Shown piece after piece: positions 6,570 to 37,438 of a DNA stretch of 64,000 nucleotides. The stretch is from Patescibacteria group bacterium (GTDB lineage Bacteria > Patescibacteriota > Minisyncoccia > UBA6257 > UBA9933): contig JBBTYQ010000001.1 of assembly GCA_038078555.1 (NCBI GenBank), forward strand, positions 156,158 to 220,157, in the 5' to 3' direction. Positions within the stretch are counted from its first letter, which is position 1. Each line of letters begins with the position of its first letter. The notes below the pieces were generated by a model that saw only the letters and a list, made by a program, of their open reading frames with translations, had not been told where the DNA came from and made no database searches. The translations under genes were made by a program, and so were the position numbers.

Positions 6570-6682
6570 TGCAGAAAATGCGATTATTCCTATCACTTTT
6601 TAGTTTGTTGTATATCTAAAGAAATTTTCAAGGGCTATTGTTATTAGTTAAAAAGTGTATTATAAATTATTGAATAAACTTT

Positions 6683-7477: not shown

Positions 7478-7493
7478 TTGAATTATTTTTTAT

Positions 7494-8453: not shown

Positions 8454-8476
8454 TTTTATCGGGTTTAAAGAAAATA

Positions 8477-8506
8477 AAAACCGCCAATAATGGCGGTTTT
8501 TATTTT
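8477..8506 (+). terminator. intrinsic terminator after the dehydratase gene
   Basis: ACCGCCA-ataa-TGGCGGT hairpin followed by a T-run. Confidence 0.8.
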
Positions 8507-8526
8507 TCAAGATATTTGATTATTAT

Positions 8527-8631
8527 TTGACTTTGTTAATTAAAATTGATATAAAATAAACAGAACACAAAAGCGCATTATGCGCTAAAAATAAAAATTC
8601 CACTTAACGGAATAAATATGGAGGTATATCG
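8527..8631 (+). promoter_or_regulatory. promoter + conserved leader, module copy 1
   Basis: TTGACT (8527-8532), 17-bp spacer, then TATAAA (8550-8555). Next come AGAACACAAAAGCG, the palindrome AGCGCATTATGCGCT (8572-8586), a weak second hairpin (8598-8612), the GGAGG SD and ATG at 8632. Confidence 0.75.
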
Positions 8632-10128
8632 ATGGATAGCGTAAAAAAGCTTTTCATTTTTGAAATGGCCAATAATCATATGGGAAGCGTGGAACACGGG
8701 CTAAAAATTATCAGGGATATTTATGAAGTAAGTAAACATTTTAATTCTGTATGCGCTTTTAAATTCCAATATCGGAATTTGGAAACTTTTATCCACCCTG
8801 ATTATAAAGAACGGATGGACTTAAAATACGTGAAGCGTTTCTCCGAAACCAAGCTTACAGAAGAAGAATCTTTAATACTAAAAAAAGAAGCGGAGGCACT
8901 TGGCTTTATTACCATATGCACGCCCTTTGATGAAGCGTCTGTGGATTTAGCGGTGCAGCATGGCTACGATGTTATAAAAGTAGCGAGCGCTTCTTGCACT
9001 GATTGGTCTTTACTCGAAAAAATCGCTTTAGTTGACAAGCCTATCATAATTTCTACCGGAGGAGTTAAGCTGGAAGATATCGATAAGGTGGTCAGTTTTT
9101 TTCAGCATCGCAATAAGCAATTTGTTTTAATGCATTGCGTTGGAGAATATCCAACCGCGCCTAATCGTTTGCAGTTAAATCAAATAGATTTATTCAGGGA
9201 GAGGTATTTAAAAATACCAATTGGATTTTCTACTCATGAAGACCCGAATAATTTCGACGCGATTAAAATAGCGATGGCAAAGGGAGCTGAAGTTTTTGAA
9301 AGGCACGTTAGCGTTAAATCGGATAAGTATGAGATGAACGCTTATTCATCAACGCCCGATCAAATTAAGAAATGGCTGGAATCCGCCAAAGAAGCCTACG
9401 AAATGTGCGGAGAAGCCGGTCAACGCGCCTATTTTTCAGAAAAAGAAATTGCGGATATCAGGCAATTTCAAAGAGGTGCGTTTGCTAAGCGCGACATAGA
9501 AAAAGGCGAGCGCGTTGATACTAGTAACACTTTCTCGGCTTTTCCTAATCAACCCGGACAGATATTGGCAAATGACTTGTCAAAATACACGGTTTTTATC
9601 GCGCTTGAAAAAATCGGTAAAAATTGTCCGGCGGTCAATGTAAGCAGGGTAGATACCAGAGACAAGGTTTATGATATAGTTCAGAAATCAAGAGCGCTTT
9701 TGGCTGAAGCCAAAATCTCAGTTTCCAACAAGCTGGAGCTTGAAATCAGCCATCACTACGGCATCGATAAGTTTTACGAATGCGGCGCGGTGATCATTAC
9801 CTGCGTGAACCGGGAATACACGAAAAAACTGATACTTGTTTTTCCCGGCCAGCAAAGACATCCTTTGCATTTCCATAAAAAAAAGGAAGAAACCTTCCAT
9901 GTCTTATATGGAGATGTAACTTTTGAGCTTGACGGCGCAAAACATGAAACCAAAGCCGGCGATATTGTTGTGGTAGAAAGAGGAGTCAAACATGGGTTCT
10001 CTTCAAAGAGCGGTGCGATTTTTGAAGAAATATCAACCACTCATTATAAAGACGACTCTTTTTATGAAGACCCCGCTATAAATGAAAATCCATTCAGAAA
10101 AACCAGATTGAGCTTCTGGGTTGATTAA
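8632..10128 (+). CDS. NeuB-family (sialic-acid-synthase-like) PEP-condensing enzyme fused to SAF and C-terminal cupin domains
   Basis: N-terminal FIFEMANNHMGS and HCVGEYPT...STHE motifs of NeuB/SpsE TIM barrels. SAF-like segment RGAFAKRDIEKGERV. C-terminal cupin segment HPLHFHKKKEETFHVLYGDV...GDIVVVERGVKHGF. Confidence 0.75.
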   Translation: MDSVKKLFIFEMANNHMGSVEHGLKIIRDIYEVSKHFNSVCAFKFQYRNLETFIHPDYKERMDLKYVKRFSETKLTEEESLILKKEAEALGFITICTPFDEASVDLAVQHGYDVIKVASASCTDWSLLEKIALVDKPIIISTGGVKLEDIDKVVSFFQHRNKQFVLMHCVGEYPTAPNRLQLNQIDLFRERYLKIPIGFSTHEDPNNFDAIKIAMAKGAEVFERHVSVKSDKYEMNAYSSTPDQIKKWLESAKEAYEMCGEAGQRAYFSEKEIADIRQFQRGAFAKRDIEKGERVDTSNTFSAFPNQPGQILANDLSKYTVFIALEKIGKNCPAVNVSRVDTRDKVYDIVQKSRALLAEAKISVSNKLELEISHHYGIDKFYECGAVIITCVNREYTKKLILVFPGQQRHPLHFHKKKEETFHVLYGDVTFELDGAKHETKAGDIVVVERGVKHGFSSKSGAIFEEISTTHYKDDSFYEDPAINENPFRKTRLSFWVD

Positions 10129-10159
10129 TTAATCAGCAATTAGTTGGTTATTTTATTCA

Positions 10160-10190
10160 GGAGGGCATATTCCACGCCCTCCTTTTTATT
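10160..10190 (+). terminator. intrinsic terminator
   Basis: GGAGGGC-9 nt-GCCCTCC followed by a T-run. Confidence 0.8.
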
Positions 10191-10193
10191 AAC

Positions 10194-10318
10194 TTGACTT
10201 TTGTTGTAAAAGATATTATAATGTATATAGAACACAAAAGCGTATTTATGTACGTTAAAAAACAAAAAAGATAGACAAGCCCATAAAACATCAAATTTTA
10301 GCTTAAGGAGGGACAGCG
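10194..10318 (+). promoter_or_regulatory. promoter + conserved leader, module copy 2
   Basis: TTGACT (10194-10199), 17-bp spacer, then TATAAT (10217-10222). Next come AGAACACAAAAGCG, a degenerate hairpin (10239-10256), a longer A-rich leader, the AGGAGGG SD and ATG at 10319. Confidence 0.7.
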
Positions 10319-10822
10319 ATGAGATACGAAAACGATAAAAAAGCGGCAGTTGAAGCATTGGCAAAGATTGATCCGTTCCAGCCTCTTGGAGCAGAGCTTT
10401 TTAATGCGATTTTTCGAGTATCAGTTGGCATCGCGATTGAGACAGTCGCGATTCGCCGGAATTCCGAAACTGGAAAAGTGGAAGTTTTTCTAACGTGGCG
10501 AAACGAAACAGCGCCTACTTATAAAAACACTTGGCATGTTCCGGGTTCATACATGAGACCCGGAGAAACAATTAAGAAAACGATTGAGCGTATCGCAAGG
10601 GATGAATTTAAGTGTTCTATTAAAGTGATTAAGGATGCTGGATGGAAAGACAATCCGACCGAAGAAAGAGGTAGTTGCGTCCATCTTGTATTTCTAGTCG
10701 GTATTGGCGAACCAAAAAATGGGAAATGGTTTCCGGTTAATGAATTACCATCAGAAACGATCGAACATCATCGCCACGTTGTAATCCCTATAGCAGTTGA
10801 AGCTTTTAAGAGCATTAGTTAA
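10319..10822 (+). CDS. Nudix-fold protein with partly degenerate Nudix box
   Basis: WHVPGSYMRPGETIKKTIERIARDEF aligns to GX5EX7REUXEEXGU with several catalytic positions changed. It is a paralogue of 19010..19471. Confidence 0.6.
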   Translation: MRYENDKKAAVEALAKIDPFQPLGAELFNAIFRVSVGIAIETVAIRRNSETGKVEVFLTWRNETAPTYKNTWHVPGSYMRPGETIKKTIERIARDEFKCSIKVIKDAGWKDNPTEERGSCVHLVFLVGIGEPKNGKWFPVNELPSETIEHHRHVVIPIAVEAFKSIS

Positions 10823-10848
10823 CAGAATTAATTTTCTGGTTTTAACCA

Positions 10849-10877
10849 AGGAGGGATTAATATCCCTCCTTTTTTTA
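10849..10877 (+). terminator. intrinsic terminator
   Basis: AGGAGGGAT-ttaa-ATCCCTCCT followed by a T-run. Confidence 0.85.
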
Positions 10878-10963
10878 TTGACTTTGCCGGCAAAAGCTAA
10901 TATAAAATAAGAAGAACATCAAATCCGCTTAGCGGAATAAAAAACAAATATGGAGGAATTGAA
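10878..10963 (+). promoter_or_regulatory. promoter + conserved leader, module copy 3
   Basis: TTGACT (10878-10883), 17-bp spacer, then TATAAA (10901-10906). Next come AGAACATCAAA, the hairpin TCCGC-TTA-GCGGA (10924-10936), the GGAGG SD and ATG at 10964. Confidence 0.7.
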
Positions 10964-11989
10964 ATGAATAAAGCTAGGGATTTGACCGGTCAAGCGCCGG
11001 GAGGACAGCGAATAAAACTGGCAGAAGCGCTTCCATTGAGCACTCCGCTGGTGGTGCAGATATTTCCTGTTTATGCCTGCAATTTTAAATGTAATTACTG
11101 TATTTTTCAGCTAGACAAGAAAGAAAGGGGTTTTATTTCGGACAAAGCCGTTATGAGCTTTGAGTTGTACAAGAAAGTTATAAAAGAGCTGGCTTTATTT
11201 CCTAATAAAATAAAAGTGTTGCGTTTTGTCGGAATAGGCGAGCCCTTGCTTCATCCGAGGATAACCAATATGGTTGATTACGCGGTTTTTAAAGGAGTGG
11301 CGGATAAAGTTGAAATTCTGACAAACGCTTCTCCTTTAACGAAGAATATGTCAGATGCGTTGATATCAGCCGGACTTTCAAGATTGGTTATTTCTCTTCA
11401 GGGCTTAACAGCAGAAAAGTACTGGGAAACAAGCAAAATCAAGATAAATTTCAAGGCCTTTATTGAGAATATCAAGTACTTTTTTCAAAATAAAGGCAAG
11501 GCGCATGTTTATATTAAAATAGTAGACAGCGCCTTAGACGGCAAAGAAGACGAAGCGAAATTTTACGAGATATTTGGGAAAATTTGCGATAGCTTGGCAA
11601 TTGAGCATATTGTTCCCATACATTCAGGCGTAGATTACGAAAAAGCGTTGAAAGGCAAAGATATTTCTCAAACTCAGTTTGGTTTGCCTGTTTCAGAGCT
11701 GAAAATTTGCCCCCAGCCATTTTTCCATATGCAGATTAACCCTGATGGAAAGGTAGTCTCGTGCTATTCCTGGGATTATCCGAAAATCATAGGGGATTGC
11801 AATAACGAATCTGTATTTGAAATATGGAGTGGTAAGAAATTTCAGCATTTTAGAAGAAAGATGCTAGATGGAAGAAAGAGCGTATGCAAGATTTGCGCGG
11901 AGTGCAAGATAAGCACCTATCGGATGTTTCCGGAAGATGTTATCAGCGACGAAGACGCAGAAAGACTTAAAAAGTTTTATAAATTTTAA
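10964..11989 (+). CDS. radical SAM enzyme with C-terminal Cys-rich (SPASM/twitch-like) extension
   Basis: CNFKCNYC is a CX3CX2C motif near the N-terminus. The C-terminal region has additional cysteines (CPQPF...VSCYSW...CKICAECK). Confidence 0.8.
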   Translation: MNKARDLTGQAPGGQRIKLAEALPLSTPLVVQIFPVYACNFKCNYCIFQLDKKERGFISDKAVMSFELYKKVIKELALFPNKIKVLRFVGIGEPLLHPRITNMVDYAVFKGVADKVEILTNASPLTKNMSDALISAGLSRLVISLQGLTAEKYWETSKIKINFKAFIENIKYFFQNKGKAHVYIKIVDSALDGKEDEAKFYEIFGKICDSLAIEHIVPIHSGVDYEKALKGKDISQTQFGLPVSELKICPQPFFHMQINPDGKVVSCYSWDYPKIIGDCNNESVFEIWSGKKFQHFRRKMLDGRKSVCKICAECKISTYRMFPEDVISDEDAERLKKFYKF

Positions 11990-11993
11990 TTTG

Positions 11994-12020
11994 GAGGGGA
12001 CTTGTTCCCCTCTTTTTATT
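11994..12020 (+). terminator. intrinsic terminator
   Basis: GAGGGGA-cttgt-TCCCCTC followed by a T-run. Confidence 0.85.
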
Positions 12021-12024
12021 TTAA

Positions 12025-12130
12025 TTGACTTTATTGGTAAAAATTACTATAAGTATAGCAGAACACCAAAGCGTATTTTACGCGCTAACAAATAATTCCC
12101 GCTTATCGGGATAAATAAGGGAGAATATCA
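12025..12130 (+). promoter_or_regulatory. promoter + conserved leader, module copy 4
   Basis: TTGACT (12025-12030), 17-bp spacer, then TATAAG (12048-12053). Next come AGAACACCAAAGCG, hairpin 1 (12070-12087), hairpin 2 TCCCG-CTTAT-CGGGA (12097-12111), the GGGAG SD and ATG at 12131. Confidence 0.75.
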
Positions 12131-13372
12131 ATGGTATGCATATTATCAAAACCATCAAAGCAGTCTTTATTGGATGAAATAAAAAGCAAAAAATTGCCTG
12201 TTGTAATAGCCGGAGCGGGCGTTGTGGGCAAGACTTTGCTGTCAATCTGTAAAGATAATGGGATTGAAGTGGAGTGTTTTTGCGATAACAGCAAGAAAGT
12301 GGCCGAAGTTAAAAAATTTTGCGGGTTGGAGGTAATTTATACTCCTGATTTAAAAAAGAAGTATAAAAACGCAATAGTTTTGATATCAGTTGCTTCAATA
12401 AAAGATACAGTTGACTTGCTTCACAATCTTGGATTTTTTAATTGGTATGCTGGCGGCTTGCTGCTTAAGGATTTTGATGTTTCTCAAAATTCAGATGACG
12501 CTTCTTTGGATTATGCCAAGTTTGCCATAGAAAATTGCATTCTATGCCACGATGGTTATTTGAATCCAGACAAGCTTTTTTTGAGAAGCATAGATGTTGT
12601 TATCACTGAATGCTGTTCCTTAAAATGCAAAGATTGTTCCAATCTTATGCAGTATTACGAAAATCCCAAGAATTGCGACATCGGTATGTTGCTTAAATCC
12701 TTAGATGCTTTTTGCGCAATTGTGGATGAGGTGATGGATTTTCGGGTGATCGGCGGAGAGCCGTTTGTAAATAAAGAGTGGTATTTGATAGTCAGGAGGT
12801 TAGTGGCTGAACCAAAAGCAAAAAGAGTGGTGATATATACGAATGGAACAATTGTGCCTGATAAAAAACACATTCCGCTTTTAAAGAACAAAAAAGTACT
12901 TGTGATAATTTCGGATTATGGAACTTTATCAAAGAAGTTATCCGAATTAAAGCAAGTGCTGGAGGAAAATAAAATCGCTCATCATGTTTTGAAAATAACC
13001 GAGTGGCTTGATTGCTCGGCTATAGCGGCTCATAATCGCGGTGTTCGGCAGAATAAGGAAATATTCCGAGTCTGTTGTGCCAAAAATATGGCCACTTTAT
13101 TTGATGGAAAGTTGTATAGGTGCCCCTATTCGGCAAATGCCGATAGATTAGCTGCGATTCCGGATTGTAAAAGCGATTATGTCGATATTATGCATGAGCC
13201 GATTAGCGCGAAAAACATTCGCGCAATCAAAAACAAAGTTAAGCGTTTTCTTTTGTATAAGGAGTATCTTAAGGCATGCGATTTTTGCAATGGAAGACCT
13301 TTGTCCGGCGTTGAAGTGCCGCCCAGCGCGCAGATAGAAAAACCTTTGAAGTATCGCAAATATTCCGAATAA
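12131..13372 (+). CDS. radical SAM enzyme with N-terminal Rossmann-like domain
   Basis: CSLKCKDC (CX3CX2C) at about aa 162-169. N-terminal VVIAGAGVVGKTLL is a glycine-rich loop. C-terminal cysteines are present (CCAKN...YRCPY...CDFCNG). Confidence 0.75.
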   Translation: MVCILSKPSKQSLLDEIKSKKLPVVIAGAGVVGKTLLSICKDNGIEVECFCDNSKKVAEVKKFCGLEVIYTPDLKKKYKNAIVLISVASIKDTVDLLHNLGFFNWYAGGLLLKDFDVSQNSDDASLDYAKFAIENCILCHDGYLNPDKLFLRSIDVVITECCSLKCKDCSNLMQYYENPKNCDIGMLLKSLDAFCAIVDEVMDFRVIGGEPFVNKEWYLIVRRLVAEPKAKRVVIYTNGTIVPDKKHIPLLKNKKVLVIISDYGTLSKKLSELKQVLEENKIAHHVLKITEWLDCSAIAAHNRGVRQNKEIFRVCCAKNMATLFDGKLYRCPYSANADRLAAIPDCKSDYVDIMHEPISAKNIRAIKNKVKRFLLYKEYLKACDFCNGRPLSGVEVPPSAQIEKPLKYRKYSE

Positions 13373-13393
13373 TGTCCGATTTTAAATTAACTC

Positions 13394-13429
13394 GACCCCT
13401 TGCAAAATATATTTTGCAAGGGGTTTTTA
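13394..13429 (+). terminator. intrinsic terminator
   Basis: CCCCTTGCAAAATA-TATTTTGCAAGGGG followed by a T-run. Confidence 0.85.
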
Positions 13430-13470
13430 TTGAATGCAGTATCACATTACTGTATATTAATACTTAATAA
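13396..13470 (+). repeat. direct repeat, copy 1 (terminator ... ATTAATACTTAATAA)
   Basis: It shares CCCCTTGC, AATATATTT, GGGG(C)TTTTTATTG and ATTAATACTTAATA with 14215..14317. Confidence 0.6.
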
Positions 13471-13485
13471 ATTTATAAAATACTC

Positions 13486-13513
13486 TTGACAATTACTGAT
13501 AATTTGATATAAT
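13486..13513 (+). promoter_or_regulatory. near-consensus sigma70-type promoter
   Basis: TTGACA (13486-13491), 16-bp spacer, then TGaTATAAT, an extended -10 (13505-13513). Confidence 0.7.
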
Positions 13514-13590
13514 TTCATCGTTCTTTGATAACTTAACTTATACGGCAAATACCAAATACCAAAAAATTCAGAATAGTAAAAGGAGGGAAA

Positions 13591-14169
13591 ATGAAAATAA
13601 CAAAAGAAAGGGAAATAAAAATCTCTTGGAGGAAAGATGAGGACGGGAGAGAAACACCAGTAAGGTTAAATGATAAGGAGGTAGCCGCCCTACGTCCTGA
13701 GCCAATATCAACTGAACCGCCGATACAAAAAGACATAAATACAAGCACGGATGCGAAAAGTAGCAACGAGGAAAATTTGCGTTATCCCGTCATGGAGGCG
13801 CTGACAAGCAATTATTTTGATATTTGTGCTGAAAAAGAAAAAGAGAATCTTCGTCTTAATAAGATAAGAAAAAGAGTAGAAATGTTGTCAGTTCTTGCCA
13901 ATGAAGGCCGGATAACTGCGCCCCAAAAAAAGAGATTTCTTTCAAAAAAAAGAGAATGTCCCAATTGCGGTAAGGAACTTCACAGAGAAATATTTGAAGA
14001 TGGCGGTTATCCAGATTATGGCGACAAGTATGATTATTGCGCTTGTAGCTGCGGTTACGAATATGGGATAATACCGTCTCAGTTTAAAGATATTTTTAAG
14101 GATGTGCTCATTATGACGTTTCTAATAGGAAGCGCTTTAGGTTTTATCATATTAGAATCATCATGGTAG
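13591..14169 (+). CDS. hypothetical protein; C-terminal zinc-ribbon-like Cys cluster and one C-terminal TM helix
   Basis: Strong SD (AAAGGAGGGAAAATG). CPNCGKE...CACSCGYEY cysteine cluster, then the hydrophobic tail LIMTFLIGSALGFIIL. It has its own promoter and terminator. Confidence 0.6.
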   Translation: MKITKEREIKISWRKDEDGRETPVRLNDKEVAALRPEPISTEPPIQKDINTSTDAKSSNEENLRYPVMEALTSNYFDICAEKEKENLRLNKIRKRVEMLSVLANEGRITAPQKKRFLSKKRECPNCGKELHREIFEDGGYPDYGDKYDYCACSCGYEYGIIPSQFKDIFKDVLIMTFLIGSALGFIILESSW

Positions 14170-14214
14170 CGCCCTATCTACGATAATCATTTTGTTTCTT
14201 AACAATAATTCTAG

Positions 14215-14317
14215 CCCCTTGCGGAATATATTTCTGCTCGGGGCTTTTTATTGTAAAAATTGATATATTTTAGTTTGTGTTATAATATACAAAAAATATA
14301 CAGATTAATACTTAATA
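14215..14317 (+). repeat. direct repeat, copy 2 (terminator ... ATTAATACTTAATA)
   Basis: See 13396..13470. The hairpin AGCCCC...GGGGCT plus T-run also terminates the 13591 gene. Confidence 0.6.
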
Positions 14318-15424
14318 ATGGGAAATAAAGATATTATAAGCGTAGTTGTGCCGGTATATAACGCCGAGAAGTTTTTAAAGCAATCAATTGGAAGCGTTAT
14401 TGGTCAAAGCTATCCGTATCTTGAATTGATACTTATTAATGACGGCTCAATAGATAATAGCGAGGCAATATGCAAAGAGTACGCTACTATAGATAAAAGG
14501 ATAAAAGTAATTTCTCAAAGAAACAGCGGACCGGCTGCGGCCAGAAATAACGGAATCAGTCATGCTACGGGAGCGTTTGTTTTTTTTCTGGATGCGGATG
14601 ATTTTATCGACAGCAAAACCTTTGAGATATTAATTGATAAATACAACGAGCATCAGCCCGACTTGGTTATGGGAAATTTTTGTAAGCTGGAAAATAACGG
14701 AAAAATTGTAAACCAAAGCGTTACCTTTAGTCCTGATGGCTCGCCGTTTACCGGAGAAATTAAAATTTTATCAAAAGAAGAGATTATTGATTTTATCAGG
14801 CATTTTTTAAAGCATCCAAGCAATCATTTGGTAAGTTATTGCTGGGCGAGATTGTATAAATTATCAGTGATTAAAAATAATAATATTTCCGCTAATGAGG
14901 ATATGAGGCTTTTTGAGGATTTTGTTTTCAATTTGGAATATTTAAAACACATTGATAAAATAGTGTTTGTTAATAAGCCATTATATACCTATGTAATGCC
15001 CAACAATCACGTGACAGCCAGTATGGCGATTATAAACAGCGAAAGCTTATTGCATGATATGAATTTATTCAAGCAAAAAACCGGAGATTTTTTTCAGCAA
15101 GTAAATTTTGGTTTTAAAAGCGCAATTAATATTAATAAAGAGATAGGACACACTCTTATCCACTATACGATTATTTTTTTGGTTCGTTCTTGTCGGCAAA
15201 TTGGCAAAAATAATAAAAAGTTGATTTATGATGAAATTAGAAAAATGGTTAATGCGCCGATTATTAAAGATAATTTGCGCTATTATTCTCCGCAAAAAGG
15301 AAACAGCAGAATTTTGCCGTTGTTGATGAAGCTTAAATTAATTAAATTAATAATTTATTTTTGCAAACATAAAGCTTATAAACGGTACGGAAAATTGAAA
15401 TTAATAGAAAAGACTTCAAAATGA
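14318..15424 (+). CDS. glycosyltransferase family 2
   Basis: ISVVVPVYNAEKFLKQSIGSVIGQSY...LINDGSIDNS and the DAD motif (FLDADDF). Confidence 0.85.
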   Translation: MGNKDIISVVVPVYNAEKFLKQSIGSVIGQSYPYLELILINDGSIDNSEAICKEYATIDKRIKVISQRNSGPAAARNNGISHATGAFVFFLDADDFIDSKTFEILIDKYNEHQPDLVMGNFCKLENNGKIVNQSVTFSPDGSPFTGEIKILSKEEIIDFIRHFLKHPSNHLVSYCWARLYKLSVIKNNNISANEDMRLFEDFVFNLEYLKHIDKIVFVNKPLYTYVMPNNHVTASMAIINSESLLHDMNLFKQKTGDFFQQVNFGFKSAININKEIGHTLIHYTIIFLVRSCRQIGKNNKKLIYDEIRKMVNAPIIKDNLRYYSPQKGNSRILPLLMKLKLIKLIIYFCKHKAYKRYGKLKLIEKTSK

Positions 15425-16377
15425 ACAAACAAAAAATCGCCATATTAGGCGCAACTTCCCATATTGCTAAAGGCCTTATAAGCAACTTCTTTCAAAGCGG
15501 CGATTTTGAAATGCATCTTTATATAAGGTCGTCTGACAAAATAAAAGATTTTCTTGAAAAAATAGGGCAATCTAAAAGCAAGGATTATGCCATTTGCGAA
15601 GGCTACGACGATTTTTTAAAACATCATTATGACGTTGTGATTAATTGCGTTGGAGTCGGAACATCGAACAAGCTTCAAGGCAATTATTCCAATTATTTTA
15701 CAGTAACCGAAGAATACGACAATTTAGTCATTAAATATTTGCAAAATATTAATCCTGACGCTCTTTATATAAGTTTTAGCAGCGGCGCGGTTTACGGCAG
15801 AGAATTAAAAGAATCGGCTGAAGAAAATTCTCTAAACTGCATAAAAGTGAACAATATTTTAAAAGAAGATTATTATTCTATTGTCAGGCTTAATGCCGAA
15901 ACCAAACACAGGACTTTTAACAATCTCAATATCGTTGATTTGAGATTATTTTCTTATTTCAGCAGATTTATCGATTTAACAGACGGTTATTTCATCACGG
16001 AATTGTTAAATAGTCTTTTAAGTAAAGAAACTTTTATGACAAACGACCAAAATATTATTCGCGACTACGTTCATCCGAAAGACCTTTTTTCAATAATTAA
16101 AAAATGCATTGAGGCAAAAAAAATTAACGCGGCATTTGATGTGATAAGCGCCAAACCGGTCGAGAAAAAGGAAATCTTGGATTATTTTTCCCGAGAGTAC
16201 GGTCTGAAATATAAAACAATCTCGTCTTTGGCCAATACGAGCGCAACGGGTTCAAAAAATATTTATTATTCAAAATATAATAACTCTTCAAGTATTGGTT
16301 ACAAACCGGAATTCAGCTCTCTAGATACGATTCAGCAAGAATCAAAATATATTTTAGGCAATTTAACTAAATTATAA
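15421..16377 (+). CDS. NAD(P)-dependent sugar epimerase/reductase (SDR-like)
   Basis: N-terminal IAILGATSHIAKGL Rossmann loop. The length and context fit a sugar-nucleotide SDR. Its start overlaps the upstream stop (ATGA). Confidence 0.55.
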   Translation: MNKQKIAILGATSHIAKGLISNFFQSGDFEMHLYIRSSDKIKDFLEKIGQSKSKDYAICEGYDDFLKHHYDVVINCVGVGTSNKLQGNYSNYFTVTEEYDNLVIKYLQNINPDALYISFSSGAVYGRELKESAEENSLNCIKVNNILKEDYYSIVRLNAETKHRTFNNLNIVDLRLFSYFSRFIDLTDGYFITELLNSLLSKETFMTNDQNIIRDYVHPKDLFSIIKKCIEAKKINAAFDVISAKPVEKKEILDYFSREYGLKYKTISSLANTSATGSKNIYYSKYNNSSSIGYKPEFSSLDTIQQESKYILGNLTKL

Positions 16378-16389
16378 AAACGGAATTTT

Positions 16390-17322
16390 ATGAACAACGG
16401 ATTTTCATTGCAAGACCACTTTGATTTAACGAAAAGAAAACTAGAGGAGGCAAAGCCTTTAGTAAAATTATTTGCTTTTGATTATGATGGAACCATTTAT
16501 GACGGTCTTGATTATAAACAGCCGGAAGTTATTGCTTTGGTGGAAAAAATTTTAGCCAAAGGCAAGTCGGTTTCTTTTATTACCGCCAGCGCGGCTTCGG
16601 CTTTGAAAACTTTTGTTCCTTTACTTAAGGAATTTCTTGTAAGCAATAACATAAATAAGCCTGTTTTTATTGGAGTAAGCAATGGAACTGTTTTATTTGA
16701 ATTAAAAAAAGGCGAATTAAAAAAAATATATAGCCACGGATTAAATTTTGAGGAAATCAATCAAATAATTAGCGGATGGAAAAAGATTTATGATAAGTTT
16801 AGCAATATTGATTTGGCGGAGAAGGGATTAAACACGTTTCAAAAATTCTTGGGCGAAAGTTGGGTTGGCTATATTTCCGATGAGATTTTAAATTTATGCC
16901 GGCCATACGAAGGAAAAATTTTTGCCGAAGAAGCCAAGGTTACTTTTGTTTTGCCAAGAAGTAAAGATTTTCATGAACAAATCATAAACGATATGAAAAA
17001 AGAGCTGGGAGAACAATATAGTATAGTTGCGGGAAACGAACTATTCTGCCATATTACAAAAAAACTTGAGGAAGACAGCAAGGCGGTAGCGGTCAAGGCA
17101 ATTTTGAAATTATTAAATTTAAAACTAACCGAAGTGGTAACTTTTGGAGATATGCCGACAGGCAATGACGAGGGACTTTTAAATTTTCCGTATAGTTTTA
17201 CTAATTTATCTGAATTGATTAGAATAAAAAGTAATTTACAGAAACCCCCTTATATTTTATTTGAACCGGAATTATCACCCGTTGCTAAAATTTATAAGGC
17301 CGTAGAATATTTAATTCTATGA
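16390..17322 (+). CDS. HAD-superfamily hydrolase (Cof-like phosphatase)
   Basis: Motif I FAFDYDGTIY and motif IV-like FGDMPTGNDEGLL. Confidence 0.7.
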   Translation: MNNGFSLQDHFDLTKRKLEEAKPLVKLFAFDYDGTIYDGLDYKQPEVIALVEKILAKGKSVSFITASAASALKTFVPLLKEFLVSNNINKPVFIGVSNGTVLFELKKGELKKIYSHGLNFEEINQIISGWKKIYDKFSNIDLAEKGLNTFQKFLGESWVGYISDEILNLCRPYEGKIFAEEAKVTFVLPRSKDFHEQIINDMKKELGEQYSIVAGNELFCHITKKLEEDSKAVAVKAILKLLNLKLTEVVTFGDMPTGNDEGLLNFPYSFTNLSELIRIKSNLQKPPYILFEPELSPVAKIYKAVEYLIL

Positions 17323-18992
17323 AACTAAGCGATTACGTAATTAAATTTATAAAAGAAGAAGTGGCTGATTCGGTTTTTTTATTGTCCGGCGGAGGCATTA
17401 TGCATTTAGTTGATTCTATCGGTAAATCCGGCATTAACGCTTATTGCTGCCATCATGAACAAGGCGCAACAATTGCCGCTGAAGGATATGGGAGAATAAA
17501 AAATCACCCCGGCGTGGCTGTAGTCACCACCGGACCAGGTGGAACAAACGCCATAACCGGCATTGCCGGAGCTTGGCTGGACAGTATTCCAATGCTCGTT
17601 ATTGCCGGACAAGTGAAGCGTGATAATATTACGCCGAGAAAAAATGGCGTTTTAACCGTAAGACAAATAGGGCTTCAAGAGTTAAATGTTATTGATACAG
17701 TGAAGCCGATTACCAAATATGCGGTAACCGTTGAAAACGAAAAAGAAATCCGCTATCACTTGGAAAAAGCGCTTTATCTGGCAACTCACGGCAGACCGGG
17801 CCCGGTTTTTGTGGAAATCCCCCTTGATGTCCAGGCAGCGGAAATAGAGGCAGACAACCTGAAGACTTTTAATAAATCGGAATTGGAAACAAAATCATTA
17901 AATATAGACGATGCTTTAATGGAAAAAGCGGTTAATTTATTAAAAGAAGCGAAGAAACCGTTGCTTATGGTTGGCAATGGCATTCGATTGGCAGGAGGAG
18001 AAAATATTTTAAGGAAAGTGATTAAAAAATTAAAAATTAACGTTGTTAGCGCGATTTTTACCGCGGACGATTTAGTCACTTATGAATATCCTTATTATTT
18101 GGGACGGCAAGGTATGGTGGGAAATAAAACGGCAAATTACGCCGTGGATAATTGTGATATATTGCTGGTGGTAGGCGAAAGACTGCAATTAACTCAAACT
18201 TCGTATGATTATGACAAGTTTGCCACGCAAGCAAAAAAAATAATGGTGGATATAGATGAGAACGAACTTTATAAAAAAACCGTTAAAATAGACATTCCGA
18301 TTAATTGCGATGCTAAAGTTTTTTTAGAGGAGCTTTATAAACAAGATATAAACTTAAAAAGATGGGACGTAAAAGTTGAGCCGATTAATCCTGATAATTA
18401 TTCCGGCGAGTCAAAATATCTTAATGTTTATAAATTTTTAGAAAAATTAAATAATTGGGCTGGTAAAATGGACGTTGCCACTTCGGACGGAATGGCGAGC
18501 GTTGCTCCGCACCAAGCTCTTAAAATATCAGGAAACCAAAGATTTATTACCAATGCCGGATTGGGCCATATGGGTTCCGGCCTTCCTTTGGCAATTGGCG
18601 CTTGTGTGGCTAATGGTAAGAAACCAGTTATTTGCTCAGAAGGAGACGGTTCAATCATGCTTTGTATTCAGGAATTGCAAACAGTTATTTATAATAAACT
18701 ACCCATAAAAATTTTTATTTTTAACAATAACGGTTACATTTCAATTAGAAATACTCATATGAAATTTTTTGGCAAAATTTTTGCCGCTGATCCGTCATCC
18801 GGCGTAAGCTTCCCAGATTTTTCAAAGCTTATTCCCGCTTGGGGATTGGCTTACGAGCGGATTAATAATAACGATGAATTGGATAAATTAGAGAAAGTCA
18901 TGGATCATCAAGGGCCGATAGTGTGTGAATTAATAATTAATCCTGCTCAACCAATGCTGGAGCGATGGTCAGCGGGAATGCTGAAGGAATAA
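17319..18992 (+). CDS. thiamine-diphosphate-dependent enzyme (acetolactate-synthase large-subunit-like; YerE-type candidate)
   Basis: N-terminal HEQGATIAAEGYGR...GPGGTNAITGIA. ThDP-binding motif GDGSIMLCIQELQT...FNNNGY. 557 aa. Confidence 0.8.
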   Translation: MKLSDYVIKFIKEEVADSVFLLSGGGIMHLVDSIGKSGINAYCCHHEQGATIAAEGYGRIKNHPGVAVVTTGPGGTNAITGIAGAWLDSIPMLVIAGQVKRDNITPRKNGVLTVRQIGLQELNVIDTVKPITKYAVTVENEKEIRYHLEKALYLATHGRPGPVFVEIPLDVQAAEIEADNLKTFNKSELETKSLNIDDALMEKAVNLLKEAKKPLLMVGNGIRLAGGENILRKVIKKLKINVVSAIFTADDLVTYEYPYYLGRQGMVGNKTANYAVDNCDILLVVGERLQLTQTSYDYDKFATQAKKIMVDIDENELYKKTVKIDIPINCDAKVFLEELYKQDINLKRWDVKVEPINPDNYSGESKYLNVYKFLEKLNNWAGKMDVATSDGMASVAPHQALKISGNQRFITNAGLGHMGSGLPLAIGACVANGKKPVICSEGDGSIMLCIQELQTVIYNKLPIKIFIFNNNGYISIRNTHMKFFGKIFAADPSSGVSFPDFSKLIPAWGLAYERINNNDELDKLEKVMDHQGPIVCELIINPAQPMLERWSAGMLKE

Positions 18993-19009
18993 TAAAACGA
19001 ATTTAAATC

Positions 19010-19471
19010 ATGCTCAATAAAAAAGAGTTTAAACAATTATCGTCATTACTGAAAAAAATAAAAAATCCGCACGAGGGTTTGCCTCAGCCGGTTTTTGACG
19101 CTCTGTTAAATGTCGTTCCTTTTTTTGCCTGTGAATTGGTTATTGTCGGCAAAAAAGGAATTTTACTTACCTGGCGCGAGGATAAGTGGTGGAAAGGTTG
19201 GCATTTTCCCGGCGGACTTTTGCGCTATCGCGAGAGCTTTGACGAGCGCATTGCCAAAGTGGCGTTTAACGAATTGGGTATTAATATAAAAAAAAGTAAA
19301 TTTTTATTTTTAAAAAATTATGACCAAGGCATTCGTTGTCATACGATTTCCGCAGTTTTTCTTTGTAAGACCGATATGACGCCCAAAGACGGAAAATTTT
19401 TCGAAAAAATGCCGAAAAATATTATAGAAGAGCATAAGGAGTTGTGGAAGATGGTAAAGAAATATTACTAA
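19010..19471 (+). CDS. Nudix-fold protein with degenerate Nudix box
   Basis: WHFPGGLLRYRESFDERIAKVAFNELGI aligns to the Nudix box, but the RE..EE glutamates are replaced (KVAFNE). It is a paralogue of 10319..10822. Confidence 0.6.
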   Translation: MLNKKEFKQLSSLLKKIKNPHEGLPQPVFDALLNVVPFFACELVIVGKKGILLTWREDKWWKGWHFPGGLLRYRESFDERIAKVAFNELGINIKKSKFLFLKNYDQGIRCHTISAVFLCKTDMTPKDGKFFEKMPKNIIEEHKELWKMVKKYY

Positions 19472-19566
19472 TTTTAGTTTGACATAATTTTTTAAAAAGG
19501 GTATTTTATACAGAGTTAAATAAAAATTTTGACAATTAAATAAGAATAAAAACAGGAGAAACCGCG

Positions 19567-21231
19567 ATGATAGAAGAAAGAAAAGAAAGAATTTTATTCA
19601 TAGTTCCGCCTTATTTGAGCTATGACAATTTTATGAATCCGGCTTTTAACGAGCGTACAGTGGTGAAGAAATCGGGCAGTTATGGAAGCGTGGTTACTGA
19701 TATGCCCATCGGCTTGATGTCCTTAAGTGCTTATCTGAAAAAACATTCCGAGACGGAAATAAAATTGATAGATTTTAATGTAATTTTGAATCAGATTGAA
19801 TCTTTTAAATACCACTCCTTTTTGGATTTTTTTGAAGATATCCTTACATTTAAGTTTAAGGATCTTGTTGATTACAAACCAACCATCGTAGCAATATCTA
19901 CTTTGTTTACGCCGTCTTATTACAATATGTTAATTGCTGCTTTTGCGGCGAAGAATATATTTGCCGATGCTTTGATAATCGCCGGCGGCGGTGTGCCAAC
20001 TAATATGTACAAGGAGATATTCAATGATACTGATTGTATTGACGCGCTTTGTTTTGGAGAAGCGGAAAAACCTTTGTTAGGGCTCGTGAAAGCAGATGAT
20101 AAAAACGAGTTTTTCAAAAATAATCCGTCATGGATTACAAAAGAAAAAGTTGAAAAACATCAGCTGTTTAAATACGACTTTATAGAGGACCTTGATGAAA
20201 TACCATTCTATGATTACAGCATTCTTGATCTATCTGGATATGGTTTGAGCCCGACCATAAGCTCGTATGCCTCTTTTGAAAAAAAGAGCATAATCTTCCA
20301 TGTTTCCACATCAAGAGGCTGTCCCTTTCGTTGTTGTTATTGCGCTTCTCATACTGTTCACGGCAGAAAGATGCGTTATCACAGTGTAGCTCGGATAAAA
20401 GAAGATTTAATGCGTCTTAAAGAACAGTACGGCGCAAATAGAATCGGTTTTCAGGATGACCAGTTTATGGCGGATAAAAAAAGAGCGCTTGAAATTATCA
20501 ACATCGCCAAGGAATTAAAAATGGAAATTTTCTTCCAAAGCGGACTGGCTCTTTATGCTTTAGACAGGAAAATGTTGGAAACCATTAAAGAGGCCGGACT
20601 TAGCCAGCTTGTTTTAGCCATAGAATCGGGCAGTAACAGGGTTTTGAAAGAAGTAATGCACAAACCGCTTAACTTATCCATAATAAAGCGGGTAATTGCC
20701 GATTGCCGGGAATTGGGATTAGATACAGACGCCAATATTCTTATTGGCCTTCCGGGAGAAACAAAGCAGGACATTGAGGATACACGGACGTTCTTGAAGA
20801 CACTAGATGCAACATGGTTCAGAATTTATATCGCAACTCCTCTTATTGGAAGCGAAATGTTCGATATTTGCCTTAAGAAAAATTATCTGAAAGGCAGCCA
20901 TATCGGCAGCGATTTCAAAAGAGCAGTTGTTGAAACGGAAGATTTCAATTCAGACTACATTCAAGAAAAAGCTTATGCTTTAAATCTTGAGCTTAATTTC
21001 GTGGGAAACAGCGATTTCCGATTGAAAAACTATGAAAAAGCTTTGCAAGGTTTTGAGAATACGATAAGAGTAAAAAGCGACCATGCTTTTGCGTATTACT
21101 ACGCCGCAAAGTGTTATGATATGCTTGGTGATACAGAAAAAGCGCAACGTTATATGAATACCGCAAAGCAGATTGTGAAAGAATATCCATTTTGGCGCAA
21201 TTACGCTAATATGTTTCGTGTCCCAATTTAG
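19567..21231 (+). CDS. B12-binding-domain (class B) radical SAM enzyme with C-terminal TPR-like tail
   Basis: The N-terminal roughly 200 aa have the layout of a cobalamin-binding domain. CPFRCCYC (CX3CX2C) lies at about aa 252. The C-terminal AFAYYYAAKCYDMLGDTEKAQRYM is TPR-like. Confidence 0.75.
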   Translation: MIEERKERILFIVPPYLSYDNFMNPAFNERTVVKKSGSYGSVVTDMPIGLMSLSAYLKKHSETEIKLIDFNVILNQIESFKYHSFLDFFEDILTFKFKDLVDYKPTIVAISTLFTPSYYNMLIAAFAAKNIFADALIIAGGGVPTNMYKEIFNDTDCIDALCFGEAEKPLLGLVKADDKNEFFKNNPSWITKEKVEKHQLFKYDFIEDLDEIPFYDYSILDLSGYGLSPTISSYASFEKKSIIFHVSTSRGCPFRCCYCASHTVHGRKMRYHSVARIKEDLMRLKEQYGANRIGFQDDQFMADKKRALEIINIAKELKMEIFFQSGLALYALDRKMLETIKEAGLSQLVLAIESGSNRVLKEVMHKPLNLSIIKRVIADCRELGLDTDANILIGLPGETKQDIEDTRTFLKTLDATWFRIYIATPLIGSEMFDICLKKNYLKGSHIGSDFKRAVVETEDFNSDYIQEKAYALNLELNFVGNSDFRLKNYEKALQGFENTIRVKSDHAFAYYYAAKCYDMLGDTEKAQRYMNTAKQIVKEYPFWRNYANMFRVPI

Positions 21232-21256
21232 TTATAAGGGACGATTATAGATTATA

Positions 21257-21284
21257 GGAGGGGATTTACGTCCCTCCTTTTTAA
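21257..21284 (+). terminator. intrinsic terminator
   Basis: GGAGGGGA-tttacg-TCCCTCC followed by a T-run. Confidence 0.8.
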
Positions 21285-21372
21285 TTGACTTTATTAATAA
21301 AAATTATTATAAGTATAGCAGAACACAAAAGCGCATAAATGCGCTAAAAACAATAAATAAGGAGAAAGTAAG
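21285..21372 (+). promoter_or_regulatory. promoter + conserved leader, module copy 5
   Basis: TTGACT (21285-21290), 17-bp spacer, then TATAAG (21308-21313). Next come AGAACACAAAAGCG, the perfect palindrome AGCGCATAAATGCGCT (21330-21345), the AGGAG SD and ATG at 21373. It is nearly identical to copy 4 over about 60 nt. Confidence 0.75.
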
Positions 21373-22467: not shown

Positions 22468-22490
22468 TAAAATGTTCGTTTAAATAAACC

Positions 22491-22518
22491 AAAAGCCTCG
22501 CTCTACGGGGCTTTTTTA
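22491..22518 (+). terminator. intrinsic terminator
   Basis: AGCCTCG-ctcta-CGGGGCT followed by a T-run. Confidence 0.8.
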
Positions 22519-22583
22519 TTTTAAAAAATAAAGTATACGAAAACTTGTAAAAATAAGAAAATAATTTATAATAGTCAGAAGTT

Positions 22584-37117: not shown

Positions 37118-37438
37118 ATGAACTATCAATTGCTCCTCGGCGTAATTCTTTCCATTATTTTAGTTTTTTTAATTTGGCGAAAGCCGGAATATGAAAATAT
37201 CGGTCTTAGCCAATACCGGAAAGAAATTAATTTTCTTAAAGAAAAGCGCAAGTACAAGATTATCAGTCTTTTGAGGGAAAAAAGTGAAATTACCAATAAC
37301 GATGTTGAAAAATTGCTGGATGTTTCCGATGCCACTGCCACTCGTTATCTTGATGAGCTTGAAGCAAAAGGCATAATTGAAGCTCTTGGAGAAACCCGAG
37401 GCATCAAATATCGTTTTAAAAAATCGGCTCATCGTTAA
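37118..37438 (+). CDS. membrane-anchored winged-helix DNA-binding protein
   Basis: N-terminal TM helix. [31 protein letters not shown] is HTH-like. Confidence 0.55.

Follow-up and report, generated by a model that had tools for sequence, protein, structure and literature searches.

A repeated module of predicted terminator, promoter and leader precedes five sugar-modifying genes in a Patescibacteria chromosome

The window (the whole stretch of 64,000 nucleotides that was analysed) comes from an uncultured groundwater bacterium of the Patescibacteria (CPR). It contains a glycan locus whose neighbours are housekeeping genes, indicating a cellular Patescibacteria chromosome and not a phage. One terminator-promoter-leader module is present in this locus as five homologous copies, each wiring a single gene, and the five genes are sugar-modifying. 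The module had been predicted from the letters of the sequence; it proved real, its coordinates and motifs were verified, and the driven genes (a NeuB-cupin fusion, a Nudix-like protein and three radical SAM enzymes) were identified as claimed. The leaders contain an AGAACAC box and up to two small hairpins, HP1 and HP2. The features are as follows.

8474..8631, + strand: module copy 1; terminator AAAAACCGCCA-ATAA-TGGCGGTTTTT at 8474-8507
+ strand: copy 1 promoter; -35 TTGACT 8527-8532, -10 TATAAA 8550-8555, predicted +1 at about 8562 (AGAACAC)
+ strand: copy 1 leader; HP1 8572-8586, HP2 8598-8612, SD GGAGG 8620-8624
8632..10128, + strand: driven gene 1 (498 aa), NeuB-family synthase with a fused cupin domain
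10159..10318, + strand: module copy 2; terminator AGGAGGGC..GCCCTCCT at 10159-10188 including the U-run
+ strand: copy 2 promoter; -35 10194-10199, -10 TATAAT 10217-10222, predicted +1 at about 10229
+ strand: copy 2 leader, long and A-rich; HP1 10239-10256 with two G.U pairs, SD GGAGG 10307-10311
10319..10822, + strand: driven gene 2, Nudix-like protein, 167 aa
10848..10963, + strand: module copy 3; terminator 10848-10871, then a U-run
+ strand: copy 3 promoter; -35 10878-10883, -10 TATAAA 10901-10906, predicted +1 at about 10913 (AGAACAT)
+ strand: copy 3 leader; one HP2-type hairpin 10924-10936, SD GGAGG 10952-10956
10964..11989, + strand: driven gene 3, radical SAM/SPASM enzyme, 341 aa
11993..12130, + strand: module copy 4; terminator 11993-12013
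+ strand: copy 4 promoter; -35 12025-12030, -10 TATAAG 12048-12053, predicted +1 at about 12060
+ strand: copy 4 leader; HP1 12070-12086, HP2 12097-12111, SD GGGAG 12119-12123
12131..13372, + strand: driven gene 4, radical SAM enzyme, 413 aa; own terminator 13394-13425
21256..21372, + strand: module copy 5; terminator 21256-21278
+ strand: copy 5 promoter; -35 21285-21290, -10 TATAAG 21308-21313, predicted +1 at about 21320
+ strand: copy 5 leader; HP1 21330-21345, SD AGGAG 21360-21364
21373..22467, + strand: driven gene 5, radical SAM/SPASM enzyme, 364 aa; own terminator 22491-22515

The predicted spacing, in which TTGACT is followed after 17 bp by TATAAN and after 6 nt more by AGAACAY, is kept in all five copies. 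Five perfect matches to the pattern TTGACTTT-N15-TATAA-N7-AGAACA were found, all on the + strand (8527, 10194, 10878, 12025 and 21285); when up to three mismatches were allowed there were six matches, against 0.08 expected from dinucleotide shuffles. A 16-copy profile, run with nhmmer --max against 83.5 kb of uninterrupted sequence (about one third of the 243-kb contig), recovered only the five known copies, and a covariance model of the box and HP1 gave no new match in 269 kb. A stable hairpin with a U-run precedes each copy, as had been proposed (-13 to -21 kcal/mol, z-scores -2.2 to -6.6). Terminators also lie 3' of the last gene in each run, so that each of the five genes is enclosed as a unit of its own. 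Copies 4 and 5, described as nearly identical, share 93% of a 55-nt core and 80% of 104 nt including the terminator, while copies 1 and 5, which precede the NeuB-cupin gene and a radical SAM gene, are 83% identical over 82 nt.

About 21 copies of the module were detected in six related Patescibacteria (Wolfebacteria-like) contig types: the window, the Hainich H51/H41 organism (L064/L065), Ca. Wolfebacteria GCA_016215225 (L056/L057), L058, L033 and L135. The nhmmer E-values for this family range from 1e-7 to 1e-12. All copies sit within the same sugar-tailoring cluster, in agreement with the proposed confinement to the locus, but they precede different genes in different genomes (NeuB-cupin, several radical SAM enzymes, a B12-radical SAM enzyme, HAD, a TPP enzyme, a C-methyltransferase, DegT and a small ORF). 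Genomes that carry the same genes in tight operons (L059-63, L136, L137) do not contain the module. The logo of 19 copies reads ttttaN-TTGACTTT-..-AAAAA-..-TATAA[G/A]-..-AG, and conservation is limited to the terminator, the promoter and the A-rich, SD-containing leader.

Comparison of the copies revealed a mean core identity of 0.67 among copies of one genome; between genomes it was 0.62 where the downstream genes differed and 0.59 where the positions were orthologous. The best match was the copy's own orthologue in only one of 20 cases, and three genomes contain near-identical pairs (0.92, 0.96 and 0.87). Between two genomes whose coding DNA is 72–78% identical, modules reach 86% identity. 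No individual module could be traced one-to-one between orthologues, and travel of a module together with a gene was not seen. Differences in gene order among the relatives often coincide with modules: the Nudix-like gene is inserted between copies 2 and 3 and is missing from the equivalent position in L056 and L065; the B12-radical SAM gene is missing at copy 4 and present beside copy 5; and the NeuB, HAD and TPP genes are differently placed and module-driven in L065. This coincidence is weak evidence, because breakpoints must fall between genes anyway. The cluster is prone to horizontal transfer, judging from driven gene 3, which is 65–76% identical to homologues across many phyla.

The module also differs from the usual gene start of its host. 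An SD is absent in 42 of the 56 genes of the window and strong in all five module genes, where predicted folds of the leaders leave it unpaired. Other promoter-like sites in the window have the form (TGn)TATAAT and lie 6–17 nt from the ATG. Thus, the host typically places TATAAT near the ATG and uses no SD, and the module contrasts with this.

The original prediction saw the regulatory core in the box and the palindrome, as an operator or a ligand-sensing RNA. The coordinates of HP1 and HP2 are correct, and each is predicted to fold into a small hairpin (-6 to -8 kcal/mol), but this part of the prediction was not supported, since these elements are variable and often missing in relatives. The box degenerates there to AGAGTAC, AGTACGT, AGAATAT or AGCACAA, and three of the five Wolfebacteria copies are hairpin-free, including copies before orthologues of genes that have HP1 or HP2 here. 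An essential operator or riboswitch is unlikely given this variability, and hairpins of 5–7 bp are too small for an aptamer. Like riboswitches and Rfam cis-regulatory leaders, the hairpins lie in the 5'UTR of biosynthetic genes; unlike them, they span 15–18 nt, vary and are optional. As anticipated, no riboswitch class fits: no Rfam family reaches its threshold, and the best matches fall on terminators and score below half of the gathering cutoff. In HP1 the invariant AGCG and CGCT arms stand 6 to 10 nt apart and some pairs are G.U, which points to a + strand RNA hairpin and not to a dimer operator of fixed spacing. Phage T7 gene 10 leader and the ompA and aprE 5' stabilisers combine a 5' stem-loop with an AU-rich leader and a strong SD. 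The module shares with them a small 5'-proximal hairpin, an unstructured A-rich stretch and an unpaired consensus SD, but its hairpin is dispensable in many copies and begins about 10 nt into the predicted transcript. Such an offset is not ideal for a classical 5'-terminal stabiliser in mRNA decay of E. coli and B. subtilis.

We consider it probable (about 0.6) that the five regions represent a copied, insulating expression cassette of about 120–160 bp, and not a sensor RNA or a repressor site. In the best reading, copying and homogenisation of the cassette took place within a sugar-tailoring cluster of Wolfebacteria-like Patescibacteria that is horizontally mobile. Its anatomy suggests how it may act. 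The G-rich/C-rich intrinsic terminator would halt transcription from the upstream gene; the -35 element directly adjoins its U-run and AT-rich tail. A -35-dependent sigma-70-type promoter (TTGACTTT, a 17-bp spacer with a fixed AAAAA tract and -10 TATAAR) would then fire. Consensus spacing predicts the start of transcription at the A/G of AGAAC, 7 nt past the -10. The resulting A-rich 5'UTR of 45–95 nt would leave the consensus GGAGG SD unpaired; one or two GC-clamped hairpins (HP1, HP2) are optional in it and would probably serve as RNA-level stabilisers or insulators rather than sensors. Each gene would thus become an insulated, SD-translated, possibly highly expressed monocistronic unit in a host whose other genes appear mostly leaderless and without SD. 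Since the same sequence beside unrelated genes provides homology for recombination, exchange between modules would account both for the near-identical copies within a genome and for changes of gene order at module boundaries.

Among the alternatives, the most credible, although unlikely, is that an alternative sigma factor or activator reads a promoter class of its own, with a regulon set at initiation. Such a factor would recognise TTGACTTT, which is invariant, together with the AAAAA tract of the spacer and TATAAR. In favour of this, 18 of 19 family members lack the final T of the -10 (no T at -7), whereas TATAAT is present in 54 of 55 phage promoters that share this -35 and spacer, as well as in the other promoter-like sites of the window. 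The module's architecture is also unlike that of the leaderless TGnTATAAT sites. However, the -35, TATAA and the 17 bp between them match the ordinary sigma-70 consensus, many phages of low-GC hosts have the same combination of -35 and A-tract, and no sigma or activator gene was seen nearby. As the missing T is normally critical, the promoter may be weak or factor-dependent rather than strong, and a looser kind of regulon, defined by a shared unusual promoter class (consensus -35 with TATAAR), is possible. The same generic -35/spacer/-10 pattern would suit five strong promoters of independent origin whose likeness comes only from consensus promoters, terminators and SDs in an AT-rich genome, and AGAACAYMAAA occurs by chance at the same position in dozens of unrelated promoters of public data. 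This already disfavoured explanation is very improbable: after masking of the promoter elements the closest pairs are still 0.89–0.94 identical, the likeness reaches into terminator loops and leaders, E-values are as low as given above, and the family recurs in relatives.

It is somewhat more doubtful than the sigma-factor or activator class that a trans-acting RNA- or DNA-binding protein recognises the element at +1 to +26 (the box plus the AGCG..CGCT hairpin or palindrome) and co-regulates the tailoring genes of this pathway. The box and the HP1 frame AAAGCG..CGCTAAAAA recur at a constant distance from the -10 in four genomes, and the frame could reflect a conserved binding partner; HP1 has three pairs with compensatory changes and 89% pairing; and in the DNA examined the element is found in this pathway only. 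Nevertheless, the covariation is marginal (its observed value was reached by 17–18 of 500 shuffles), the element is missing or degenerate in many family members, orthologous positions included, and the inter-arm spacing varies. AGAA at +1 is generic, occurring at the predicted start of 36 of 55 unrelated strong AT-rich promoters. A search for a linked HTH regulator, which had been suggested, found no regulator gene within the glycan locus of about 33 kb, the nearest winged-helix gene being at 37118-37438. Least probable of all is a selfish miniature repeat (MITE or Correia-like) or an integron-type cassette site with promoter-like sequence. Correia elements are short intergenic repeats with inverted repeats and promoter and terminator activity, and the module resembles them, MITEs and attC cassettes as a hairpin-bearing repeat of about 60–150 bp separating single genes. 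As an intergenic unit of about 140 bp it has internal inverted repeats and a predicted promoter and terminator, and its ends, as read from the sequence, show loose inverted similarity (CCTCCTTTTT...AAATAAGGAGG). This similarity is explained by function, as a C-rich stem arm with a U-run against an A-rich leader with an SD. Moreover, copies are not dispersed beyond one gene cluster in 83.5 kb, all keep the same orientation and register relative to the downstream ATG, and each cassette has its own promoter. No transposase or integrase was found among the scanned window proteins (some small ORFs excepted) or in the contig Pfam gene tables, and by eye the module sequences contain no GTTRRRY core sites, terminal inverted repeats or target-site duplications.

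Returning to the copied expression cassette, the module resembles the PeSL (promoter-early stem-loop) cassettes, repeated composite intergenic motifs of T4-type phages (Arbiol et al., 2010, PMC2839356; Comeau et al., 2014, PMC4122927). Both consist of an upstream stop codon, a G-tract/C-tract stem-loop terminator, an AT-rich stretch, sigma-70-type -35/-10 elements, an SD and a start codon, and both bracket single genes in a plastic region where relatives show indels or replacements at the motifs. In contrast to PeSL, the module is located on a cellular chromosome, its stem-loop is always upstream of the -35, its unit includes a long 5'UTR with optional hairpins, and it flanks conserved pathway enzymes, not ORFans. 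No phage sequence similarity of the module was found. The module can also be classed among the putative mobile promoters, upstream regions of 50–100 nt with at least 80% identity before non-homologous genes of one genome, some of them shared between genomes (Matus-Garcia, Nijveen and van Passel, 2012, PMC3488235), as the identities of copies 1 and 5 and of copies 4 and 5 illustrate. However, these promoters form a statistical catalogue without a defined architecture, whereas the module includes a terminator on its upstream side as well as a structured leader and, in the DNA examined, occurs in one pathway only.

It should be added that the driven genes had been judged richer in GC than their neighbours. 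This holds against the adjoining glycosyltransferase genes (0.38–0.44 versus 0.31–0.35), but equal values are found in the module-less genes for the TPP enzyme (0.39), the B12-radical SAM enzyme (0.38) and the dehydratase (0.38).

The window is a section of a contig of 243 kb (ENA ERZ1292619) from well H41 of the Hainich aquifer, whose proteins are labelled 'Patescibacteria group bacterium' at NCBI and whose GC content is about 35%. The modules are located in a glycan locus with chromosomal neighbours (tmRNA, SmpB, ArgRS, IleRS, GAPDH and ClpP). Its sugar-tailoring block comprises a NeuB-cupin fusion, four radical SAM enzymes, a TPP enzyme, a HAD phosphatase, a DegT aminotransferase and Nudix proteins.

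Features of the locus
Bases 1-33,000: glycan locus with glycosyltransferases, flippases, nucleotidyltransferase, 4,6-dehydratase and the sugar-tailoring block
8474-8631 (+): module copy 1, before the NeuB-cupin gene
10159-10318 (+): module copy 2, before the Nudix167 gene
10848-10963 (+): module copy 3, before the radical SAM gene rSAM341
11993-12130 (+): module copy 4, before a radical SAM gene (413 aa)
21256-21372 (+): module copy 5, before a radical SAM gene (364 aa)

The tmRNA gene at 51354-51717 (-), with the tag peptide AKNRLVPLSGTPALAFA, adjoins smpB in an ordinary housekeeping context.

The pattern TTGACTTT-N15-TATAA-N7-AGAACA gave five mismatch-free matches in the window (8527, 10194, 10878, 12025 and 21285), all on the + strand, and with three mismatches allowed six matches were found versus 0.08 expected. 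The five intergenic regions said to be built from the same parts are real and non-random, and their description was accurate. A hairpin followed by a U-run, with a predicted energy of -13 to -21 kcal/mol and far more stable than shuffled sequences, lies upstream of all five copies. Each copy continues into an A-rich leader of 45-95 nt, which closes with a GGAGG-type SD 7-9 nt ahead of the ATG. Since a separate terminator also follows the final gene of each run (13394-13425 and 22491-22515), all five genes are enclosed as single units by stable predicted hairpins, in agreement with the original prediction. Copies 4 and 5, proposed to be nearly identical over about 60 nt, share 93% identity over a 55-nt core and 80% over 104 nt; for copies 1 and 5 identity is 83% over 82 nt. 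The driven genes are GC-richer than the adjacent glycosyltransferase genes, as had been suggested, but several module-less genes are equally GC-rich.

To place the module among other gene starts of the host, we searched 83.5 kb, that is the window with 9.7 kb upstream and 9.8 kb downstream on the same contig. An nhmmer --max profile of 16 family members revealed no copies in this DNA besides the five, the next match having E = 0.23. A covariance model of the box, AGAACAC(A/C)AAAGCG at the predicted +1, together with the leader hairpin HP1 found nothing new in 269 kb of window-contig and related DNA. With only five copies in 83.5 kb, the module is confined to the pathway in this DNA, and within the examined third of the contig it is not a generic promoter. 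The other intergenic regions mostly contain TATAAT, often as TGnTATAAT, 6-17 nt from the ATG, without a -35 match and without an SD, which would be a leaderless-type architecture. By mechanical ORF calls, 42 of the 56 gene starts in the window lack an SD-like sequence, and all five module genes have a strong SD. The tailoring block holds seven of the window's 12 strong SDs; those outside it precede a few small genes, e.g., the SpoVG homologue at 37578-37943. In general, initiation in this genome seems to be largely leaderless or independent of an SD.

The tailoring pathway (about 12-15 genes, 6683-23771 in the window) recurs with shuffled order in many phyla (loci L056, L058, L059, L062, L064 and L135-L137). 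Its recurrent members are an NDP-sugar transferase, a 4,6-dehydratase, the NeuB-cupin fusion, four radical SAM enzymes (one B12-binding with TPR), a TPP enzyme, a HAD phosphatase, DegT, an epimerase, a GT2 and a Nudix protein. The rSAM341 protein shares 65-76% identity with proteins labelled Wolfebacteria, Desantisbacteria, Omnitrophica, Ignavibacteria and Bathyarchaeia, and the pathway itself is widely exchanged. By a pattern scan of metagenome contigs and look-up of the contexts of rSAM341 homologues, we detected module copies in five further contig types besides the window.

Module copies in related genomes
Second Hainich organism (L049/L053, identical to L064/L065): four copies
Ca. Wolfebacteria GCA_016215225 (L056/L057): five copies
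Contig L058: four copies
Contig L033: two copies
Contig L135: one diverged copy

Every recovered copy lies within the same tailoring pathway, and the genes driven differ between genomes. They are rSAM340, rSAM408, HAD and TPP enzyme genes in the second Hainich organism, a C-methyltransferase and DegT in L033, and NeuB-cupin, rSAM341, B12-rSAM, rSAM401 and a small ORF in L056; in the window HAD and TPP are operon members without a module. No modules were found in genomes where these genes form tight operons (L059-63, L136 and L137). The stricter pattern TTGAC-N18-TATAA-N7-AGAACAYMAAA gave 18 singleton matches in unrelated taxa among species-representative genomes, a set of which the window's own genome is not a member. 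As none of them has HP1, these were considered chance matches on ordinary promoters. Among metagenome contigs the matches were also mostly due to chance, yet the true relatives L033 and L049/L053 were recovered.

Comparison of the module cores revealed that copies resemble each other most within a genome.

Mean core identity of module copies
Within a genome, different genes: 0.67
Between genomes, different genes: 0.62
Between genomes, orthologous genes: 0.59

In three genomes, pairs of copies are nearly identical (0.92, 0.96 and 0.87), and the orthologue was the best match for only one of 20 copies. The window and L065 share 72-78% identity in coding DNA and up to 86% over 93 nt in modules, and a module usually has its best partner elsewhere than at the corresponding position. 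This likeness within genomes, together with the non-positional best partners, indicates that the cassette would have been copied or gene-converted independently of the genes.

Gene order differs among the module-bearing genomes, often at modules (window, L056, L058 and L065). Nudix167 is found between copies 2 and 3 in the window only; the B12-rSAM gene lies between rSAM341 and rSAM~410 in L056 and L058 and beside copy 5 in the window; NeuB, HAD and TPP occupy other places in L065, where they are module-driven. Because breakpoints must be intergenic, the coincidence of these changes with modules is weak evidence. The travel of a module with a particular gene (B12-rSAM and the module downstream of it, in one-to-one orthology) was not traceable, all modules being about equally similar. 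Nudix167 was also considered as a moved copy of the Nudix gene that precedes GT2 in relatives, but the two are only 30% identical and so are different paralogues.

It should be mentioned that ORF 13591-14169, which is small, Pfam-less and has CxxC pairs (zinc-ribbon-like by eye), has its own promoter, TTGACA-16-TGATATAAT. The same terminator, GCCCCTTGCGGAATATATTTC..GGGGCTTTTT, flanks it on both sides (13394-13425 and 14213-14250) and is single in L056 and L065. This ORF looks like a putative gene insertion bounded by a duplicated terminator.

The logo of 19 distinct family copies reads ttttaN-TTGACTTT-N5-gtAAAAA-N3-tTATAA[G11/A7/T1]-ataanc-AG-aAca. In its full form the box is restricted to L033 and the two genomes from Hainich; other relatives have AGAGTAC, AGTACGT, AGAATAT, AGTACAA or AGCACAA in its place. 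In a scan of viral contigs, the pattern TTGACTTT-N7-AAAA-N4-TATAA was found in dozens of unrelated phage promoters, 36 of 55 of which also start with AG and then AA, and no module homologues were revealed among the viral contigs matching the -35/spacer/-10 pattern. In its predicted form, the promoter part of the module is a generic strong AT-rich promoter. The last base of the -10 is G or A (TATAAR) in 18 of the 19 family copies (window positions 8555, 10906, 12053 and 21313); the phage promoters with the same pattern have TATAAT in 54 of 55 cases, as do the other promoter-like sites of the window. With this ending, a factor-dependent promoter class is possible.

Another promoter and leader, highly conserved and different from the module, was noticed at L011 3700-3745, L018 192-237 and in L023, L025, L027, L048 and L051. 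It reads TTGACCGAAAnnCTTTTTTnnnGTATAATTTnAnCAGAACAyAAAAAA, followed by an AT-rich leader of about 70 nt, and overlaps with the module in AGAACAYAAAA at +1. Its hosts are Moranbacteria, one Patescibacteria MAG and unlabelled metagenome contigs, two of which come from the Hainich well H41, and the gene behind it begins with MNMATTNPA or MDIGKNDPA.

HP1 (8572-8586, 10239-10256, 12070-12086 and 21330-21345) and HP2 (8598-8612, 10924-10936 and 12097-12111) were found where they had been placed, and fold as small hairpins that are predicted to leave the SD single-stranded. In an alignment of the 12 leaders bearing HP1, 89% of cells pair and three of the six pairs are changed on both sides (A-U to G-C, G-C to A-U and C-G to U-A), with one copy at an intermediate A.C state. 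The observed pairing or covariation score was reached by 17-18 of 500 column shuffles; as the sequences are related, the covariation is suggestive and not decisive. HP2 keeps its pairing with differing sequences (UCCGC/GCGGA, UCCCG/CGGGA, CUCGC/GCGGG and UUCCG/CGGAA).

The box and palindrome had been proposed as either an operator for a dimeric regulator or a riboswitch-like leader element, a proposal not borne out by the variable box, the optional hairpins, the variable arm spacing and the lack of a linked regulator. The constant AGCG and CGCT arms of HP1 are separated by 6-10 nt, and in copy 2 HP1 contains two G.U pairs, which are A.C mismatches on the opposite strand. Such spacing and the G.U pairs, which break DNA symmetry, fit a + strand RNA hairpin and speak against a fixed-spacing dimer operator and, in addition, against a minus-strand terminator. 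The element is also missing in many copies. The expected HTH regulator was not found at 1-33 kb of the window, the nearest winged-helix gene being at 37118-37438. Small Zn-ribbon ORFs were rejected as a shared regulator, since those at 13591-14169 in the window and at 10463-10828 in L057 have no significant similarity and no Pfam domain. As to a riboswitch, no Rfam family explains the motif: in the window the gathering score was passed by tmRNA only, and permissive scanning of the modules yielded nothing but sub-threshold terminator-like matches. Moreover, a structured aptamer should be conserved at orthologous genes, and those in L056, L058 and L065 lack the hairpins or have different ones. 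The leader of rSAM341 contains just HP2 in the window and just HP1 in L064; that of L056 lacks both, and that of L058 has HP1 and at best a weak HP2; three of five Wolfebacteria copies (L056/L057) have no hairpin at all. Being optional and of 5-7 bp, HP1 and HP2 are not aptamers, and the module adds no new RNA class. They may serve as optional leader hairpins for stability or SD insulation, although our confidence in the exact role is low. For a classical 5' stabiliser, the position of HP1, which begins about 10 nt from the predicted 5' end, is less than ideal. A looser reading, a promoter class shared by one pathway, is possible.

A second recurrent leader motif of these clusters, distinct from the module, reads '(A)AGTTTTTTAACAATTAAATA(A/T)AAGGAGG' or 'TTTTGACAATTAAATAAG', with a small inverted repeat, TTTAA-CAA-TTAAA, directly before the SD. 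It was found at 19510-19566 in the window (before the B12-radical SAM gene), L056 16800-16847, L065 15040-15091 and 19610-19645, and L135 6455-6489, 9960-10000 and 12740-12777.

Several known kinds of repeated elements were compared with the module. An integron cassette array does not fit, because each unit carries its own promoter and attC-type cassettes are promoterless; no integrase was found among the window proteins scanned or in the contig gene tables, and inspection of the boundaries by eye revealed no GTTRRRY cores. A MITE or Correia-like repeat, which would be dispersed and carry terminal inverted repeats and target-site duplications, is not in accord with five copies only in 83.5 kb, all from a single cluster, with one orientation and a constant register relative to the downstream ATG. 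Putative mobile promoters are defined as upstream regions of 50-100 nt with at least 80% identity within one genome and non-homologous downstream genes (PMC3488235). The module falls under this definition both in identity (83% over 82 nt for copies 1 and 5, 80% over 104 nt for copies 4 and 5) and in the genes driven, which are NeuB-cupin, Nudix and radical SAM here and HAD, TPP enzyme, methyltransferase and DegT in relatives.

The promoter-early stem-loop (PeSL) cassettes of T4-type phages consist of a repeated stem-loop terminator, a sigma-70 promoter and SD motifs, often with polyG/polyC stems; they flank single genes in plastic regions and bring about modular shuffling (PMC2839356, PMC4122927). 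They are defined by hyperplastic T4-type phage regions, by indels and replacements bounded by the motifs, and by recombination between motifs that yields mini-circles (PMC2839356, PMC4122927). All five modules have, like PeSL, a predicted sigma-70-like promoter and a stem-loop terminator, then an SD and a start codon. They differ in their location on a cellular chromosome, in the long leader within the unit and in flanking pathway enzymes. A comparison with PeSL-like indels rests on relatives that are only 72-78% identical, and BLAST of copy 5 against phage records gave no match. In its predicted architecture the cassette is closest to PeSL, without being a member of the PeSL family, and would be a novel, cellular form of an element type already known.

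The best-supported explanation is that the module represents an expression cassette which insulates its gene and has been copied within a horizontally mobile tailoring cluster, its promoter, terminator and translation activities all being inferred. It can be tentatively hypothesized, with a probability of roughly 0.3, that the modules are a cellular counterpart of PeSL. These portable cassettes would move and recombine in a horizontally exchanged CPR sugar-tailoring cluster, driving SD-dependent expression in leaderless/SD-less hosts as well as the gain, loss or rearrangement of individual tailoring genes and thus changes in surface-glycan chemistry. The -35 and TATAAR class and the HP1 frame could add to this portable-cassette reading a pathway-wide control by a dedicated factor.

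To our knowledge, little is known about gene expression in CPR/Patescibacteria, and no work on their promoters was found among the leading literature matches. The main significance of the module concerns CPR gene expression and glycan-locus plasticity: one genome would combine two expression architectures, leaderless/SD-less for most genes versus a copied cassette, with consensus -35, 5'UTR and strong SD, for radical SAM and other sugar-tailoring enzymes. If active and recombinogenic, the cassettes would keep a shared glycan-modification pathway expressible in different hosts and explain its reshuffled gene content, which bears on the cell-surface diversity of episymbionts. The modules are also candidate promoter, terminator and RBS parts for CPR organisms, for which we know of no genetic tools so far.

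Finally, L065 contains at 6158-6547 a truncated extra copy (129 aa) of the nucleotidyltransferase gene, located upstream of an O-antigen-polymerase-like gene. Its DNA is 84% identical to the 5' end of the full gene (window 6673-6873), and this copy may be another sign of glycan-locus rearrangement.
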